A DNA stretch of 64,000 bases, from contig CAWIGG010000002.1 in assembly GCA_963835575.1 (NCBI GenBank), positions 1,408,001 to 1,472,000 of the forward strand, written 5' to 3'. The notes beneath the pieces are model-generated. The model did no database searches and was not told where the DNA came from. It saw only the letters and a program-made list of their open reading frames with translations. Both the position numbers and the translations under genes were made by a program. This document shows positions 1,452 through 8,625 of the stretch, in pieces (within the stretch, counting starts at the first letter, position 1; every line of letters begins with the position of its first letter). Source of the DNA: an uncultured Spirochaetota bacterium. Its GTDB lineage: Bacteria > Spirochaetota > Brevinematia > Brevinematales > JAOACQ01.

Positions 1452-1695
1452 ATCCGCCTCTCCGTTTCCATATTAGCCCCATTAAAATACATCTTTCCAA
1501 TACGGAATAAAGAGGGAAACCCCATTACATACCCCAATATAAAACGCTGTAACCAATTCATCAAAAATAAAAGTTTCTGATTGTTTTTTAAATTGCTGTT
1601 GACGGAATTTTTAATAGACGCGAAATATTATTGATCAATTTTCAATATTCTACATCTAAATAATTAAAAATGCAATAGAAAACAGGAAAATATTT

Positions 1696-1719
1696 TTTAT
1701 AAGGAAATTTCCTTATAAA
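1696..1719. promoter_or_regulatory. Perfect 24-bp palindrome TTTATAAGGAAATTTCCTTATAAA, possible operator
   Basis: Seen directly, upstream of the HD-GYP-like gene; AT-rich, so it could be chance. Confidence 0.35.
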
Positions 1720-1776
1720 TCCTTATATTTTGACTTTTAATAGGCTTTTTTTCTTTAAAAAGAAAGGGAAAAGGGT

Positions 1777-2229
1777 GGCGGCACAGCCTTCGGCTGTGAC
1801 ACGCTGCAGGATCGTCCGCCGGCAGGAAGCAACGACCGGAATTGTTTTTTTTAATTTTTGATCAAGATAAATTATAGAGCATCTTTATTTTTAAAACAGT
1901 TCGCTAATTTGCTCCAGCGGCTTGGGCTGCAGCCATTCGCGGCCGCACGCAGGTAACTCACCTGCCTCTTGTAAGCTTTTTTCAGAAGATTCTCTTATTT
2001 GCCCGTCTTGATTCTTTCAATCCGACAAGAGGCAGGTGAGTTACCTGCGTTTAAGCCGGCCTGCTCCCTTCGATGCGCTTCGCTTACTCAGGGCAGGCAT
2101 GGGCAGCCCTACGCCGCTTCCGCAATAAGCTAATAATTATTTTCAATCCTTTATTATGTTGATGTGATGATCAAAATTTAAAAAAAAACAATTCCGGCCT
2201 CAGCAGGGAGCGACCGCCGGCGGACGATA
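1777..2229. repeat. Rod-like palindromic element, copy A
   Basis: Outer imperfect IR (about 1811-1864 / 2168-2228) and perfect 26-bp inner IR (1947-1972 / 2025-2050); homologous to 7070-7480 and 3015-3440. Confidence 0.85.
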
Positions 2230-2363
2230 AAGTAAATGAAAATAATAATAAACAAAGGAATTTTATCTAAGAAGCGTCACTTCGATGAACTCAGTGCAAG
2301 AGAGATGAAAATTTCCTTCGCCGCTGGTTATAGTGTGAAGCAATGGTTCGGCAGGCTCACCAT
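2059..2363. repeat. Cluster of short REP-like hairpins (stem-TTCG(A/G)..(G)CTCA-stem)
   Basis: Copies at 2059-2098, 2278-2296 and 2343-2363. Confidence 0.6.
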
Positions 2364-2525
2364 GGCGTCTGTCTGCACAGACACATCACTTCTTAGATAC
2401 CAAAAACCATTTTTAAACCTGTTGATTGACAAACGTAAAGTGAGTATCTGAATATATGCAGGAATACTCTTGACTTTAGTATTTTAAATATTTAGCTTCC
2501 TTTATATAAGTAAAGGAGCAGATAT

Positions 2526-3011
2526 ATGCAAAAGATCACCCCATTCCTCTGGTTCGATAATCAAGCCGAAGAGGCTGTTAATTTTTATGTGTCGATTTTT
2601 AAAAATTCAAAAATTGGAAGCGTTTCCCGTTATGGAGATGAAGGGACGGAGGTCTCCGGAAAGCCGAAGGGAACGGTCATGTCAGTCACATTCCAGCTCG
2701 ACGGGCAGGAATTCACGGCGTTGAACGGCGGCCCTCAATTCTCTTTCACGCCGGCCATATCTTTCTTTGTGAACTGCAAAACGCAGGAGGAAGTTGACGA
2801 GCTGTGGGAAAAGCTTTCCGAAGGCGGTGAGAAAGTACAATGCGGCTGGCTTAAAGACAAATACGGCATATCATGGCAGATCGTTCCGACTATTCTAGGC
2901 AAGCTTCTGAAGGACAAGGACCCTGAAAAATCGAAAAGGGTCATGACAGTCATGCTGAAAATGACTAAACTTGATATTGATGCTTTAAAGAAAGCATACA
3001 ACAACAACTAG
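2526..3011 (+). CDS. VOC family protein (PhnB / 3-demethylubiquinone-9 3-methyltransferase-like)
   Basis: [11 protein letters not shown]...[38 protein letters not shown]. Confidence 0.93.
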
Positions 3012-3014
3012 TGC

Positions 3015-3440
3015 CTATGGCTATGCCGCACTGCCAGATTGTACCCCGGTAGTAAGCAATGGCAGATAAAATACTTTTCTGGACACTGATAATTAATTTA
3101 TGGGCAGTTCCTCCCTCACCATTTTGGATTGCTTCAAGGTGGGCTTACAAAATGGTGAGGGATGGAACTGCCCCAGTTAAGAAATTCCTTGTAAATGTAA
3201 ATGGCGCTGCCGCATAGAATTCGCTGGCAAGTGATTTTTTTTGGCAGCGAACTCGAGCGGCCGCATGATCTAAAACAAGGTCGGCAGTTCTAAAAATGTG
3301 AGTTTTTAGAACTGCCCTTTAAAATAATCACACATACGCTCAGAGGGTTTATTTTGCAACCGCTCACGGGTACATACGCAAGGAGAAGTTTGCGGCTCAA
3401 CTGCGCCGGGCCTCACACATGTGACAGTCCCCGGCGGACA
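3015..3440. repeat. Rod-like palindromic element, degenerate copy C (interrupted by a MITE, internally deleted)
   Basis: 3015-3100 aligns with about 7080-7165; 3335-3380 aligns with about 7197-7240; ends in CCGGCGGAC like copies A and B. Confidence 0.7.
3102..3317. mobile_element. MITE, diverged 216-bp copy (GGGCAGTTC...GAACTGCCC)
   Basis: Same termini, central hairpin and right hairpin as 25895-26098; the left hairpin has a different sequence but still pairs. Confidence 0.8.
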
Positions 3441-3558
3441 AAAATATTTCAATAAACTTTCTTAATTTTATTGATAATAGGATTTGGGATAAAATACCTA
3501 TTGCCAGCTCTTCAATAATAATATAAGATATTATGAAAATTTAAATGGGGATTTTATT

Positions 3559-4407
3559 ATGAGTACGGAAATCTATTATTTTTCAGGGACGGGAAATTCG
3601 CTGGTTGTCGCGCGGGGAATAGCGGAGCAAACAAAAGGGAAACTGATCCCAATCGCTTCCATGGTTGATAAAAAAGCAGTCATGCCAAAAGCCGATAGTT
3701 TCGGTATCGTGTTTCCGGTCTATTATGTGGATATTCCCGTTATCATCAGAAAATTTGCAGAAAAACTGGATAATATCAAAGATAAGTACCTGTTCGCGGT
3801 ATGCACCTATGGGGGCGGAGCAGGGAATTCATTTAACAGCTTAAGCAGGATCATCCGATCGCGCAGAGGCGAACTTTCCGCTATGTTCGGCGTTCATATG
3901 CCGCAAAACGGATTTTTCAAACCCTGGGAAAAGCATCAGGTAATTTTTCAAAAAAGCAAAAAGAAGCTTAAAACAATCAGCAGGATGATTAATCTTAAGA
4001 AAAAAGGAATGCCTTTATCCGGTGCGCTGGCGCAGATCATTCTTTATCCCATTCAAATATTAAGCGAATCCGCTTTTAGAAGCTGGATCGTAAAAGCATC
4101 CGGCATATCAGATCGGCCGAATGAAGAACTGATCGGGCGGCTAGACAAGGATTACAGTACAAATGATAACTGCAGCGGCTGTGGGATATGCGTTCAGGTT
4201 TGCCCTGTCAATAACATAAAAATGGCAGACAAAAAGCCAGTGTGGCTGAACCATTGCGAGACCTGCCTGGCTTGCTATCACTGGTGTCCTATGAAAGCCA
4301 TTCAGGGTGGAATTTCTCCTTATAAAAATCAATTTTTTTATCATCATCCAGATATTAAAATTTCAGATATCATTAAACAGAAACAAGCTGTAAGTAATAT
4401 CATATGA
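3559..4407 (+). CDS. EFR1-family ferredoxin (flavodoxin-like domain plus 2x[4Fe-4S])
   Basis: YYFSGTGNSL N-terminus; CSGCGICVQVCP and CETCLACYHWCP. Confidence 0.9.
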   Translation: MSTEIYYFSGTGNSLVVARGIAEQTKGKLIPIASMVDKKAVMPKADSFGIVFPVYYVDIPVIIRKFAEKLDNIKDKYLFAVCTYGGGAGNSFNSLSRIIRSRRGELSAMFGVHMPQNGFFKPWEKHQVIFQKSKKKLKTISRMINLKKKGMPLSGALAQIILYPIQILSESAFRSWIVKASGISDRPNEELIGRLDKDYSTNDNCSGCGICVQVCPVNNIKMADKKPVWLNHCETCLACYHWCPMKAIQGGISPYKNQFFYHHPDIKISDIIKQKQAVSNII

Positions 4408-4424
4408 AAGAATGACTGGGTAAA

Positions 4425-4460
4425 CGTCCTTTCTTTCTTTTAAAAAAGAAAGAAAGGACG
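4425..4460. terminator. Hairpin between convergent genes
   Basis: CGTCCTTTCTTTCTTTT / AAAAGAAAGAAAGGACG inverted repeat. Confidence 0.55.
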
Positions 4461-4489
4461 CATTAAACAAACTCTTCAACGTGAATTCA

Positions 4490-5116
4490 TTAATTATTAA
4501 AGCTCATATTAAGCTCCGCCGCTCCGATGATCTTGTCATTTATGGCAGCCATCATTTCATCGAGAGTGAACCCGTCTTTAAGCCCCGAGGGTGCCGATAG
4601 GGCGTAAACCTGAAGCCTGTAGACATGGATGATAGGTCTTTTCGCGTCCTTGGGAAAATCTTTCGGCGGCTGCGGGCCCGTATAACCTATCTCACCGCGG
4701 CCGTTTTTTCCCTGTATGAAGCCTCTTGGATGGGCCGAGGCGTTGTCCTTCAATCCGCCGAGTGAGGGATTGATATCGGCGGCGATCCAGTGAATGAACG
4801 AGTCTCCCTTCATTCCATTGGCGGCCATCACCTTCTTGGCGTCCGGGTCGTCAAAGACCAGGGCGAGCGCTTTTGTTCCCGCGGGAAGGTTTTTCCATGT
4901 GAACGGGAACAACCTGGGATTCGCTTTTCCCTTATCCTTAGCGGCATAAATCGCGGCGATCCTGCCGTCCGATTTCAAACCGGAATCGAAGCCTATCTGC
5001 GGTTTTCCCTTCACTGCCGGCGACATAAGCTTGAACGGACCTTTCGAAGCCGACATCAAAAAAAGAGCTATAACCGCCAGAAAAGCAACAACAGAAAGAT
5101 TCCTCATCATTTTCAT
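4490..5116 (-). CDS. YbhB/YbcL (PEBP / Raf kinase inhibitor-like) exported protein
   Basis: Signal peptide; ALVFDDPDA, FIHW, GYTGPQPP, HVYRLQVYAL. Confidence 0.88.
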   Translation of the reverse strand: MKMMRNLSVVAFLAVIALFLMSASKGPFKLMSPAVKGKPQIGFDSGLKSDGRIAAIYAAKDKGKANPRLFPFTWKNLPAGTKALALVFDDPDAKKVMAANGMKGDSFIHWIAADINPSLGGLKDNASAHPRGFIQGKNGRGEIGYTGPQPPKDFPKDAKRPIIHVYRLQVYALSAPSGLKDGFTLDEMMAAINDKIIGAAELNMSFNN

Positions 5117-5244
5117 ATTTCCTCCTTTTATTTTCGCAGAATGTCATTTCTGCTATTTTTATTAATATAATAAAATTAGAGGTGAAATGTCAACCGGCGG
5201 CATCCTGCGGGGGTTTTGTTCACTTTTCTTTTGGAAAGTCCCAA

Positions 5245-5537
5245 TGCCTCGACAAGCTCGGCAACCGAATACCCTTTTATCTAAACAAAAAACCAGAAAG
5301 CGATGTCCCGAGCACTTCGGCGTAGCTCAGTGTAAACTCCGCCGAGGGGAAAAGGACTTTCGAGGCCATTTTCATACGAAGAGGTCGGATTGTATGGATA
5401 TGTGTTATCCGGCTTTTAGAAAATCGTTTCTTTATTACAATAGCCTCCTTATATCGCTGTCCATAGCTTTATGCGTCGGTTGCGGCATCCCCTTCGACTC
5501 CCGTTCGACTTCGCTCACGGTCGCTCAGGGCAGGCTC
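5245..5537. repeat. REP-like hairpins, including nested copies
   Basis: TGCCTCGACAAGCTCGGCA at 5245; CACTTCGGCGTAGCTCAGTG nested in 5305-5350; CCCTTCGACTCCCGTTCGACTTCGCTCACGGTCGCTCAGGG near 5490. Confidence 0.6.
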
Positions 5538-5771
5538 TGCCGCAAGCATGGGCTTCAGCTCTTTTATTATTATAGCGGATAACACGTCATTCAATCGATT
5601 AGTTTGATTTGCAGATTATGGTTTAGAGGAAAATGGCCTCGGGTACTGATATTGAATCGAATTTCTTTTTGATTATTACCCAATACTTCCTTTTAAAATA
5701 TTCCTTTATAAAGAATCAATTCCAGACATCAGCTATCATTTCGAAGGTTTGAAAACAACTCCGCCGCAGAT

Positions 5772-5799
5772 TAACACTCGTTATTTGACAAACGGCAGG
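5772..5799. repeat. 27-28 bp direct repeat TAACAC(T)CGTTATTTGACAAACGGCAGG, copy 1
   Basis: Second copy at 7584-7610 differs by one indel. Confidence 0.7.
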
Positions 5800-5837
5800 C
5801 GCGTATGTAATGCCCGACCGAATAGACAGGATGGCCT

Positions 5838-6968
5838 CTAAAACAGCCCTTTACGCACAACAATTGCCTTTTGCGGACAGATTTCCTGACAGCAGTAGCA
5901 CCGGATGCACTTATTGTAGTTATATACTGGCGGCTGCTTTTTATCTCCGTTCTTGAAATCAAGCGCTTTGCCTTCCACAGGGCAGGCATCGACGCATATG
6001 CCGCATTTGATGCAATTTTCTTTTATTATGAAAGGTCTGGGAAAAATGAAATTGCCGATAAACTTCGGAACCAGGTTTCTTTGATATGTTTTTTCCACAG
6101 GCTTCCGGACAACATTGAAATTTTTATTGATGAATAAATCAATAGGATCACCTAAAAGTTCTATTTCTTCTTCCTTATATGTTCCCAGGCCCGCCTGACT
6201 GCCGTAAACGTTCGTCGGCACATACTCCGGATTCATGTCTATCATTCCGGCAAATGTGGCATCCATCGCGATGGGATCGGCGGATACCATGATACAGTTC
6301 ATTTTGACGGCATCTCCGGCGCGGGGTCCGTTCCCATCCATTGCCACGATTCCATCCATAATAAAAAGGCGCATTTTTAAATTTTTATTCAGGTCCACAA
6401 GCATTTTGGCGAAGTTCAGCGGATGAGGGACCTTGACATGAAAGGCGGCCTTGTTCATACCGTAAACACAGCCGAACTGGTTTTTAATTGCGCCGGTAAT
6501 CCGGGTCAGCGCGTGGGTTTTCATCTTCGGGAGGCTGATAATGCCGTCTGTTTCGAGACATGCGTTTGCAATATCGAATTTTACCGCTGCCATACCCTGC
6601 GGATAATCTATGCTTCTGCCCTTTTCAAAATCGCCTAATTTAATGGAATAGCGCCCGGCTATTTCCGTCAAGCCGGCTTTTGTCAGGGCCGCGGAAGGTT
6701 TTTCAAACCCCGGCGAATCCCCGTACGTTACATTGACGCCGTATTCCATCAGCAATCTGACGATGCCGTTAAACACTGAAGGGTGCGTGGTGACGAGATC
6801 TTCGGGTTTTGCGGCGGCGAGAATATTCGACTTTAAAAGGATGTTTTCCCCTTTTTTAACGAACGATCCGATCCCGCCGATCAGGTCCACTCCCCTCTTT
6901 ATAGCCTCATAGACCTTCTGCTCGTCATAGCTTTCACAGCGTACAATTGCGACTTTTGATTTATTCAT
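5838..6968 (-). CDS. DUF362 domain protein with C-terminal 4Fe-4S dicluster
   Basis: ILLKSNIL...TTHPSV, ISLPKMKTH..T.ITGAIKNQFG, CIKCGICVDACP, CIRCYCCQEICP; start moved to ATG 6968 behind AAGGAG. Confidence 0.9.
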   Translation of the reverse strand: MNKSKVAIVRCESYDEQKVYEAIKRGVDLIGGIGSFVKKGENILLKSNILAAAKPEDLVTTHPSVFNGIVRLLMEYGVNVTYGDSPGFEKPSAALTKAGLTEIAGRYSIKLGDFEKGRSIDYPQGMAAVKFDIANACLETDGIISLPKMKTHALTRITGAIKNQFGCVYGMNKAAFHVKVPHPLNFAKMLVDLNKNLKMRLFIMDGIVAMDGNGPRAGDAVKMNCIMVSADPIAMDATFAGMIDMNPEYVPTNVYGSQAGLGTYKEEEIELLGDPIDLFINKNFNVVRKPVEKTYQRNLVPKFIGNFIFPRPFIIKENCIKCGICVDACPVEGKALDFKNGDKKQPPVYNYNKCIRCYCCQEICPQKAIVVRKGLF

Positions 6969-7069
6969 AATCTGTTTTCTCCTTATATAATTTAACATTA
7001 AATTATATTATAATAGATGAAAATCGGCAATTTTAATTTAGATGTCTGCGACTGATGAGAAAGAAAAAG

Positions 7070-7480
7070 GGCGGTACAGCCTTCGGCTGTGCCACGCTGC
7101 AAGATTGTCCCCCGGCGGAGAGCTGCGGCAGAGAGTAAACTTTTCTGAATGCTGATATATAATCTACATCCTTGTTAATTTTAACAAAGGCACGCTTCGC
7201 TCCGAGGGCTTGTTTTGCAATCCGCTCCCGGACACGCACTCGGAACTCACACGCCCATTGTAAGCATTTTTTTAAAGAATCCTTAATTAATCTGTTTTGA
7301 TTCCGGAATTTCCGACAATGGGCGTGCTCGGACAATCCGAGTTCTCAAGCTGTCCGGGAGCGGAGCAAAACTACGCCCTCTCCGCGATGCTCTGTACTTC
7401 AATTCCTTTATTAACTGAGTGACGCATCCAGAAAATTTTACTCTCTGCCCCCAGCAGGGAGAAACCGCCGGCGGACGGTA
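7070..7480. repeat. Rod-like palindromic element, copy B
   Basis: Nested stems 7204-7209/7375-7380, 7212-7218/7365-7371, 7221-7234/7351-7364, 7250-7261/7315-7326; ends shared with copy A. Confidence 0.85.
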
Positions 7481-7522
7481 TAGAGAAAAAAATAATAATA
7501 AAAATGTATACAAAAGCCCGGA

Positions 7523-7542
7523 CACTGAGCGGAGCCGAAGTG
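7523..7542 (-). repeat. REP-like hairpin
   Basis: Reverse complement is CACTTCGGCTCCGCTCAGTG. Confidence 0.6.
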
Positions 7543-7583
7543 GCCGGACATAAAAACAGCTTACAACGGCGCCTGTCTTGACA

Positions 7584-7610
7584 TAACACCGTTATTTGAC
7601 AAACGGCAGG
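7584..7610. repeat. 27-bp direct repeat, copy 2
   Basis: Matches 5772-5799. Confidence 0.7.
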
Positions 7611-7776
7611 TTAATGTGCTACACTGAATCGATTGGTGTTAAAGAGATGGGGATTAGGTTCTCAGGATTTCGCGAAGAAAGCCGGGCTGTTTTAAGCCGG
7701 CTTATTTCTCTATGGAAGCATAACGTTGGGGCATGCGGAAAGGCATGCCTTTTTTTGTTTAAAAAAGGAGAAAACA

Positions 7777-8625
7777 ATGCGAATTGTCGTGGGTATAGAT
7801 GAAACTGGTACCGAAAGACAAATTTGTGATGGATGGTGTTACTTTGGGATACCTAATGATTGTTTAAAATCATTTGATAAAGAATCTAATGTAATAAAAT
7901 CGAAACATAATATTTCTAAATTTCATGCTAAAGAATATCAAAACTCAGAAAGGACTGCATATGAAGAATTTCTTTTACTTATTGAAAAATACATCGAATC
8001 TTGTCCTATTTCAATTTGTTCAACATACCTGTATCGTAAAGACTGGAATATAAAACTTCATGAGTTCTCAGAAAGAATATTATCAGGTGCAACAAAAACA
8101 GTTGGTATAGAAAATCTAGATGCCACAAAGATCGCGAAATTATTTCTCCCACCATTATATTCGCTTTCAAAGATTGGAAGAAATTTAAATCATTCATCTG
8201 AATTTGAAGTTTATTTTGATAGTGACCAACTTAAATCTCAAATTAATAATCATGTTTTTTCATTAACTACAGAAATAGGTCTGAGTCTTCGAAAAACAAT
8301 AGCTATAGTTGCAAATGAATATCGAAAATTAAATTATCCAAATTCACCAAAGATACTAGATACAAATATTCAAGTTTTAGATGATGAAAAAAGCAATATT
8401 ATTCAAGCAGCGGATGTAATAGGAAACTTCTCTAATGCATATATATTCACAACCCTGGGTGGTGTTTCAAATAAAAGAAAAGAAAAATCTACAATCTTCA
8501 CTAAGGCATTTGGTAAACATTTAACTGAAGTTGATTTTAGTGGTCAAATTAAATTACATGGATTAAATGATTTAGAGCTTATTGGGGATGCTGCTGCACT
8601 CCCATTTATACTTGGGAGATGTTAA
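7777..8625 (+). CDS. DUF3800-like protein (RNase H-like fold), low GC
   Basis: N-terminal IVVGIDETG, FHAKE, VYFD, C-terminal IQAADVIG; AAGGAG RBS before ATG 7777. Confidence 0.75.
   Translation: MRIVVGIDETGTERQICDGWCYFGIPNDCLKSFDKESNVIKSKHNISKFHAKEYQNSERTAYEEFLLLIEKYIESCPISICSTYLYRKDWNIKLHEFSERILSGATKTVGIENLDATKIAKLFLPPLYSLSKIGRNLNHSSEFEVYFDSDQLKSQINNHVFSLTTEIGLSLRKTIAIVANEYRKLNYPNSPKILDTNIQVLDDEKSNIIQAADVIGNFSNAYIFTTLGGVSNKRKEKSTIFTKAFGKHLTEVDFSGQIKLHGLNDLELIGDAAALPFILGRC

Follow-up and report, generated by a model that had tools for sequence, protein, structure and literature searches.

A dispersed family of intergenic, rod-like elements with a covarying core in Brevinematales

We describe a family of dispersed elements, noticed in a 64,000-nucleotide stretch of a contig from an uncultured Spirochaetota bacterium (the window), in which stem geometry and fixed internal loops are preserved in a ~195-nt core while the letters of its stems turn over. 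Copying has placed the core, inside exchangeable outer arms, at intergenic sites that are unrelated to one another, in a pattern that differs by lineage. On balance, we regard the family as probably consisting of non-autonomous, non-coding, REPIN-like single-stranded DNA (ssDNA) elements moved by a trans-acting protein.

Copies in the window and in the genome

The first-pass annotation had placed two copies of a ~430-bp palindromic element at 1777-2229 (copy A) and 7070-7480 (copy B), with common ends and short internal motifs separated by stems that differ in sequence yet still pair. These positions were confirmed, and all of the features described (common ends, short motifs and exchanged stems) were found in the sequence (Table 1); the swaps are real, but A versus B amounts to a single contrast between two subfamilies. 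As a unit, the ~430-bp element held less well, since the conserved part is the ~195-nt core; the outer arms are lineage-specific and the element ends differ in every related genome. Folded as RNA, copies A and B form long rods of -201.5 and -184.8 kcal/mol (z-scores -11.9 and -11.7; equally stable shuffles, 0/100), and the minus strand of copy B gave a z-score of -12.2 with DNA folding.

The element outreaches the limits first given, with a conserved A-rich tail running to about 2252 in A and 7502 in B, and the purine-rich 5' stretch at 1766-1776 probably belongs to it too. On the minus strand this stretch reads as a run of pyrimidines that follows the end hairpin. Within the core of A, fixed G-A-type internal loops interrupt the stems, the apical loop is AT-rich and a template switch probably made the perfect palindrome of the inner hairpin. 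Copy C, initially taken for a decayed third copy, is not uniformly decayed: it retains the two ends of a B-type element together with the 5' half. It has no complete core, the 3' half of the core being missing, and immediately follows the stop codon with which a PF06983 gene ends.

Table 1 Positions of the elements and their parts in the window
Feature	Position	Strand	Remark
Purine-rich stretch preceding copy A	1766..1776		Similar stretch precedes several other copies; putative boundary
Copy A, full subfamily-A element including A-rich tail	1777..2252	- (putative folding strand)	
End hairpin of A	1777..1804	-	Loop 1789-1791 is GAA on minus strand, a GNA triloop
Outer GC-rich stem of A, 5' arm	1813..1825		Partner 2214-2226
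Second stem of A, 5' arm, subfamily-specific	1834..1859		Partner 2174-2199
Conserved core of A	1907..2130	-	Covariance model R2, 138.5 bits
Inner hairpin of A	1947..2050		AACTC/TCARACA internal loop of the family now a perfect 26-bp palindrome
Small hairpin repeat of ~32 nt, other family	2065..2097		Inserted in core 3' arm of A
A-rich tail of A	2227..2252		Conserved among copies
Copy C, both ends and 5' half of a subfamily-B element	3011..3442	-	
Insert in C	3102..3317		Consists of other palindromic repeats that are high-copy, with dozens of matches in the genome
Copy B, full subfamily-B element including A-rich tail	7070..7502	-	
End hairpin of B	7070..7097	-	Loop 7082-7084 is GAA on minus strand
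Outer GC-rich stem of B, 5' arm	7106..7118		Partner 7465-7477
Second stem of B, 5' arm	7127..7152		Partner 7424-7449
Conserved core of B	7195..7392	-	Covariance model R2, 172.3 bits
A-rich tail of B	7478..7502		

The search for further copies advised by the first-pass annotation returned 9 full copies in this genome, falling into two subfamilies with identities of about 0.54-0.62 between A and B and 0.71-0.79 within each. Because identity within subfamilies is just 71-79%, movement here does not appear recent. Between the subfamily consensus sequences, 26 of 79 pairs differ, and all 26 remain Watson-Crick. Unpaired ends in this genome revealed no long ORF-bearing form. A pattern for the outer palindrome matched in this genome only, yet it caught only 2 of the genome's own ends.

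Covariation of the core and its folding strand

The proposal of selection for a single-stranded fold whose bulges are conserved was upheld in a set of 39 distinct cores drawn from 7 genomes. In the alignment, which was fitted to the covariance model, both sides had changed in 47 of 48 pairs, 91.9% of cells were paired (33-47% in slid controls) and the covariation score was 0.687 compared with 0.203 after shuffling. Watson-Crick combinations filled 1596 of 1737 cells, and G-T just 21 (plus strand) and 56 (minus strand). Conservation was higher in internal loops (0.77) than in stems (0.65), and the fixed internal loops were seen again in other phyla.

Such covariation could be mutational rather than selected if the copies were neutral relics of old inverted repeats, with template switching keeping their arms complementary. 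The conversion of one internal loop of copy A into a perfect palindrome and the collapse of long palindromes in Ralstonia fit this explanation, and template switching also removes wobble pairs. It would, however, erase internal loops, yet the loops are the most conserved positions in seven genomes and in other phyla; nor would it be expected to produce a strand-specific GNA rule or mismatch asymmetry. We consider this explanation, already weakened, highly improbable.

An excess of G-T on the minus strand was present in 7/7 genomes and amounted to 48 versus 20 after collapsing (p=0.0009), an asymmetry that strand-biased mutation could also yield; this genome's 9 copies alone showed no strand bias (20 versus 19 over 79 pairs). 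The minus-strand GAA triloop pointed out in the first reading proved to be part of a wider pattern, 12 of 20 end-hairpin loops being GNA when read on the minus strand, as against 56 of 1027 background hairpins; stems of at least 5 bp support 10 of the 12. As DNA, GCGNAGC mini-hairpins greatly exceed related RNA hairpins in stability, and they are found at ssDNA priming and promoter sites (PMC13037366). The rare wobble pairs, the mismatches, the GNA triloops and the G-A loops strongly suggest that the minus strand is the one that folds, and that it does so as DNA stabilized by sheared G-A pairs.

The stems of structured RNAs usually tolerate a wobble share well above 1-3%. The TwoAYGGAY RNA motif (RF01731) is linked to the R200 repeat of Pseudomonas. 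A multi-copy structured RNA of the TwoAYGGAY/R200 kind, lying in 3' UTRs or under its own promoter and acting in mRNA stability or as an ncRNA, would agree with the position of many copies, which begin about 30-140 nt from a same-strand stop codon, and with one copy in G002 that has a stop codon on one side and a terminator-like hairpin on the other. The minus-strand end hairpin followed by a pyrimidine run is itself terminator-like, and TwoAYGGAY elements are likewise multi-copy, variable in copy number among strains and doublet-forming (10.64898/2026.09.22.753630). Against an RNA speak a G-U/G-T share of 1-3% of stem cells, triloops that obey the DNA GNA rule rather than GNRA or UUCG tetraloops, mixed orientation to neighbouring genes and the lack of an Rfam match: the first-pass annotation recognized no named family, the window gave 0 matches, a search at E up to 10 gave only weak generic hairpins, and none of the Rfam families, including TwoAYGGAY and HEARO, reached its gathering threshold. 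We judge an RNA element unlikely, although deserving of some weight. Of the two options raised originally, an ncRNA or an ssDNA-recognized REPIN-like element, the non-autonomous ssDNA option fits better because wobble pairs are rare, GNA loops lie on the minus strand and the copies are dispersed and lineage-specific; it is not a REPIN sensu stricto, since no RAYT tracks with the element.

Distribution, genomic context and mobility

The covariance model detected 89 cores in the same taxonomic family, where 8 of 12 genomes carry between 1 and 38 each; a further 146 genomes of the phylum had none. How widely the long-loop form occurs was judged on these two sets plus 50 genomes from outside the phylum. 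BLAST cannot see the family between genera and, across 60 relatives and 400 genomes of the phylum, yielded AT-rich noise and a single true lead, G009. Pattern scans based on the letters of this genome produced only chance matches (56 in genome contigs, 1 in viral sequences, 14 in metagenomes), none of which was extended by a 9-copy profile. In a tree of cores, grouping was mostly by genome, and the copies from this genome adjoined other genera.

Neighbours of the cores are unrelated housekeeping genes. Copies are single units in this genome, G002 and Ralstonia have inverted doublets, and in G004 one pair of copies flanks a gene on both sides. One site is filled in three species, which could reflect long retention rather than repeated insertion. 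The comparison of filled and empty sites suggested at the outset located 9 of 35 relatives' sites in synteny here, 0 of them with a core, and gave no clean empty/filled pair. Transposons that move as ssDNA favour the lagging template; orientation relative to GC skew showed no bias among our copies (13 versus 10, with a weak skew).

No mobilizing enzyme was found, and none is encoded beside the copies. A co-occurring HUH/RAYT nuclease flanked by the same ends had been envisaged, but no Y1 transposase or RAYT linked to cores was found: Y1_Tnp was not found in G001-G004 or G009, the five genomes holding 74 of the 89 cores, and the two Y1_Tnp matches in this genome have no core nearby. Y2_Tnp was not found in this genome, where the search controls were silent too. 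Partner tests covering 5 genomes found no IS110 in G002 or G004, DUF559 only in a genome without cores and no GIY-YIG gene adjacent to a core. The left end of an rve (IS481/IS3-like) element was considered, as a core lies upstream of 3/4 gene copies in G004, and rejected, as the link fails outside that genome (neither G006 nor a Leptospira plasmid has the core before the gene, and G000 yielded no such gene). Six plus-strand copies, with exact ends uncertain, showed no consistent target duplication; three minus-strand rows were left out of this comparison.

In the mechanism that we favour, exposure of the strand, for example at a replication fork, would allow the G-A-studded rod and end hairpin to take a recognizable shape; a trans-acting protein would recognize this shape, copy or excise the strand and insert it elsewhere in REPIN style without target duplication. 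The apex motif may also assist second-strand priming. Covariation would arise because copies persist only if their shape is kept.

A form of the element with a short apex is present in multiple copies in Ralstonia, in one Saprospiraceae genome and in prophages. Shorter Ralstonia alleles were considered as empty sites and rejected, being ragged internal deletions. In filamentous phages, the apex motif adjoins the origin hairpin, and the GNA-folding strand is the gene-coding strand, which is the one packaged. The motif occurs beside filamentous-phage origins at 10 of 119 loci and within an O-like phage replication-initiation gene at 42 (7 distinct), and the CCGAAGG mini-hairpin of a plasmid ssiA signal is present in A and B (PMC13037366). 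These phage loci and the mini-hairpin, together with the role of ssDNA signals as PriA loading sites (PMC3167613), would fit a single-strand initiation or primosome-assembly signal that multiplied in chromosomes and aids replication restart or priming, with mobility secondary. In the window cores, however, the minimal apex is swapped for an 11-bp stem and a 53-63-nt AT-rich loop, replication-direction strand bias is absent, copy number varies from 0 to 38 among close relatives and the origin-associated motifs have no rod and give no score with the covariance model, so that we hold this reading to be quite improbable. Also unlikely is a broader proposal of cross-phylum, enzyme-less, ssDNA-shaped modules without a dedicated transposase, in which a G-A-rich fold shared with phage priming signals would recruit host restart or priming proteins; such modules would be self-copying and arm-swapping, enclose passenger genes between them and give rise to junctions within the cassette arrays of polymorphic toxins.

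Relation to known systems

The family is apparently undescribed so far: a literature search covering few subscription journals returned no paper for four short family motifs and none describing the family by title or abstract. A member could sit among the 67 undescribed stem-loop families of PMC2267715 or in data accompanying a bioRxiv preprint. The family is abundant, its shorter form crosses phyla and it supplies an unusually clean set of natural covariation for what appears to be a secondary structure of DNA rather than RNA, based on non-canonical G-A motifs. Long intergenic hairpins of this sort would in many cases pass as ncRNA candidates or stay unannotated. The reader of the fold, once found, would reveal either a transposition route that is new or a protein of the host that reads structured ssDNA, and the covariance model and strand prediction make fold recognition directly testable.

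An interpretation as integron attC sites was dropped, the unit being three times too long and core sites missing by inspection. The MITEs ERIC, NEMIS and RUP (PMC3733652; PMC10969869) resemble our elements in being non-autonomous, 200-450 nt long, equipped with inverted arms, gene-adjacent and often nested with other repeats. Unlike in MITEs, the arms here are subterminal and unrelated between genomes, the centre rather than the termini is conserved and the ends are asymmetric, with a hairpin on one side and an A-rich tail on the other; we found no terminal inverted repeats that correspond to those of a resident IS and no long form carrying a transposase between its ends.

The ends of IS200/IS605 and IS91/ISCR carry subterminal hairpins recognized as ssDNA, are asymmetric and give no target duplication. 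Predicted hairpins of this type, asymmetric ends and the lack of target duplication are shared by our family, which differs from IS200/IS605 in that no Y1 link was found and no conserved cleavage tetranucleotide was established. Like TwoAYGGAY (RF01731)/R200 of Pseudomonas (10.64898/2026.09.22.753630; PMC2718517), the elements are long, structured, multi-copy, intergenic, variable in copy number, doublet-forming and without assigned function; they form an unbranched rod with G-A loops rather than AYGGAY hairpins, and their stem turnover is far greater. One-strand GNA mini-hairpins and an apex motif at phage origins recall ssi and primosome signals (PMC13037366; PMC3167613), which are single-copy origin parts, whereas here the motif lies within a long dispersed rod.

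REPIN/RAYT systems (PMC3116915) are similarly non-coding, intergenic, multi-copy and lineage-specific, with a single-strand fold, inverted doublets in some hosts and no target duplication seen. A GTAG or CGTC end tag, as in the REP superfamilies of those names (PMC3733652), was not noticed in most ends here. A REPIN comprises two short, inverted, conserved REPs; the arms here are not conserved short REPs, and compared with REPs of 20-40 conserved nt (PMC3116915), the unit spans 195-450 nt and combines covarying stems with fixed loops.

Copies and architecture in the source genome

Copies A and B lie in the window (contig C2:1408001-1472000 of the 4.39-Mb, seven-contig source genome) where the first-pass annotation had placed them, flanked by ordinary accessory genes, and both fold as the long rods described there (folding z scores of -11.9 and -11.7; 0 of 100 shuffles equally stable). 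Copy C, proposed as a decayed third copy, retains both ends and a B-type 5′ half, but its middle consists of other repeats and holds no complete core, the conserved central part of ~195 nt.

A profile search of the source genome recovered nine full copies, divided into subfamilies A (n = 4) and B (n = 5), plus several partial ones. Ordered from outside to inside, the element comprises a purine-rich stretch (probably part of it) and the end hairpin, then a GC-rich outer stem and a second stem, and finally the AT-rich linkers, the core and the A-rich tail. Across 79 pairs in the full copies, 658 of 711 cells are Watson-Crick. The subfamily consensus sequences differ at 26 pairs, all 26 of which keep Watson-Crick pairing, and compensatory changes within subfamilies affect 12 pairs in A and 12 in B. 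Short variants combine the same ends with a different interior, and minimal variants consist of a hairpin, a small palindrome and the A-rich tail. This genome yielded no longer version in which element ends enclose a gene, nor any consistent target duplication in the six plus-strand copies (the three minus-strand copies were left out).

Other features were observed alongside the element. A second nested palindrome family, with short inverted arms enclosing further hairpins, frequently lies immediately 5′ of partial element copies, adjoining a DUF772 transposase gene. Several accessory genes are preceded by the TTGACA-box stretch, possibly a promoter belonging to another repeat. An AT-rich open reading frame (ORF) without Pfam or PHROG match begins with an IDETG word reminiscent of DUF3800 and is followed by a Schlafen/AlbA_2 gene; the two are a possible defence pair.

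Positions of the element copies and accompanying features (window coordinates unless a contig or locus is given)
Feature	Position	Remark
Copy A	1777-2252	including A-rich tail
Copy B	7070-7502	including A-rich tail
Copy C	3011-3442	
Inserted high-copy palindromic repeats	3102-3317	inside copy C; dozens of genome-wide matches
TTGACA-box stretch	2414-2435, 5773-5799, 7584-7610	repeated
AT-rich ORF	7726-8625	
Second nested palindrome family	5350-5650; source genome C5:237600-237830, C2:2027620-2027830, C2:96390-96500, C5:375300-375450	
Group II intron-like 3′ end	source genome C2:96100-96390	by inspection; followed by nested repeat and lone element 3′ end
Restriction-modification-like gene	L014 229-3228 (source genome C5:408849 onward)	in-frame embedded Y1_Tnp domain
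rve-type transposase family	L165 5402-8669 and 14398-15687; L186; L192	located among Rhs modules (genomes G004 and G006; a Leptospira plasmid)

Covariation of the core among relatives

BLAST searches of 60 relatives gave no real match, and those of 400 genomes from the phylum a single lead, G009, whose element has identical loops and wholly different stems. A covariance model built on the core detected 35 further cores, spread over seven of the family's 11 other genomes, but no core in 49 genomes outside the family. After refinement it detected 89 cores in eight of the family's 12 genomes, with 38 in G002, and, under stricter filters, none in 146 other genomes of the phylum or in 50 from other phyla. 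The covariation originally read from the window copies was borne out: in 39 distinct cores, both sides change in 47 of 48 pairs, 91.9% of cells are paired (33-47% in slid-partner controls) and the covariation score is 0.687 versus 0.203 when shuffled, figures that are not probabilities because the alignment was fitted to the model and its rows are related.

Internal loops are more conserved than stems (0.77 versus 0.65), and the apical loop of the core measures 53-63 nt with 77% AT. One internal loop of copy A is now a perfect palindrome, showing that arm homogenisation does occur and that the loops persist despite it; we regard a neutral relic as very improbable. The outer arms differ in each genome, and in many relatives the end hairpin is instead a T-rich/A-rich one. 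In an unrooted tree, cores cluster mainly by genome, and those of the source genome fall with two other genera instead of their own genus. A same-genus relative of the source genome encodes FlaA, which fits a spirochaete.

Folding strand and the short form beyond spirochaetes

With one poorly paired column left out, 1,596 of 1,737 cells (39 cores, 47 pairs) are Watson-Crick; read on the plus strand, the mismatches include 21 G-T and 56 A-C, the latter equivalent to G-T on the minus strand. This minus-strand excess recurs in seven of seven genomes (48 versus 20 collapsed by genome and position, p = 0.0009), but the source genome's nine copies show no such bias over the 79-pair set (20 versus 19). 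On the minus strand, GNA loops cap 12 of 20 end hairpins versus 56 of 1,027 background hairpins, the outermost core loop sets GNA opposite GNA and the inner loops are tandem G-A. Internal loops of the latter two kinds form sheared G-A zippers in DNA. We consider it probable that the copies represent a genuine family of non-autonomous repeats, apparently not described before, that is selected for a G-A-studded fold, most likely as minus-strand single-stranded DNA (ssDNA). An RNA element, corresponding to the non-coding RNA that the first-pass annotation had entertained, seems unlikely; no Rfam family matched at gathering score across the window, and only generic hairpin matches appeared in 1600-7700 at E values up to 10. 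GCGNAGC mini-hairpins are described in PMC13037366 as exceptionally stable in DNA and present at ssDNA priming and promoter sites. A domesticated priming signal is a distinctly improbable reading of the element.

Scanning viral contigs with the relatives' end hairpin yielded six loci, among them an inverted doublet that shares the loop series but has a minimal apex. The 19-nt apex pattern occurs at 119 viral loci, of which 31 also have the end hairpin and rod, 42 lie within an O-like replication-initiation gene, 10 adjoin a filamentous-phage origin hairpin and 36 are in other settings. Viral contigs that are small (2-5 kb) and circular (L244, L267, L310 and L350) likewise carry it in non-coding DNA. 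The spirochaete model scored three of 12 hairpin-type loci in register (E 4e-6 to 1e-4; remainder weak or none) and none of three origin-type controls better than E 1.3, scoring that is partly circular because the motif was used to pick the loci. The short form, with the minimal apex, also occupies 505 places in 140 Ralstonia megaplasmid records (maximum 13 per record) and was present in two of 50 genomes tested (Saprospiraceae, 12 copies; Clostridium, one). In filamentous phages, the GNA-folding strand of the apex motif is that coding the Zot-like gene, and the packaged strand is the gene-coding one. Layout and loops suggest that short and long forms would be homologous.

Dispersal, candidate partners and known systems

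Nine of 35 relatives' sites (eight distinct) are syntenic in the source genome, none with a core there. The one inspected by sequence has a plain terminator-like hairpin in the source genome and is filled in G001, G002 and G004, with different arms in each. Inverted doublets occur in G002 and Ralstonia, and in G004 a pair of copies brackets a gene for a 505-aa protein with TPR-like repeats. Copies in G002, G004 and G009 also occupy junctions between toxin cassette repeats, of Rhs type or other, and there may simply have been co-duplicated with the cassettes. In G004 and G002 (L167, L168 and L217) there are tandem cassette arrays in which a core copy accompanies a DUF3467 gene, a toxin-like module and an immunity-like gene. 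No clean empty sites were found in Ralstonia, where shorter alleles are ragged internal deletions; orientation relative to GC skew is 13 versus 10.

Neighbour-gene and family searches identified no partner enzyme. Genes beside 44 cores share nothing except insertion sequence and cassette genes, and 50 further neighbouring ORFs were mainly housekeeping genes or lacked a name, a DDE transposase and a UPF0102 gene being found once each. Candidates that gained no support were Y1_Tnp (gene not found in five genomes carrying 74 of the 89 cores), IS110 (not found in G002 or G004), DUF559 (only in G006, which has no cores), and GIY-YIG (genes >10 kb from the cores listed), the last three in searches of five genomes; rve was rejected (3′ of the core in G004, not in G006 or the Leptospira plasmid; gene not found in the source genome). 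The rve-type family itself has a conserved palindromic 3′ end and variable structured 5′ regions. Movement through host priming proteins, with no dedicated transposase, is doubtful.

A literature search found no publication containing four short family motifs, or describing the family by title or abstract, although supplements could hold a member. MITE identity was rejected on MITE tests. REPINs (PMC3116915), to which the first-pass annotation had likened the element, are closest to it in working, but the element fails the RAYT test. TwoAYGGAY (10.64898/2026.09.22.753630) differs in structure and Rfam score, yet its genomic behaviour is like that of the element.
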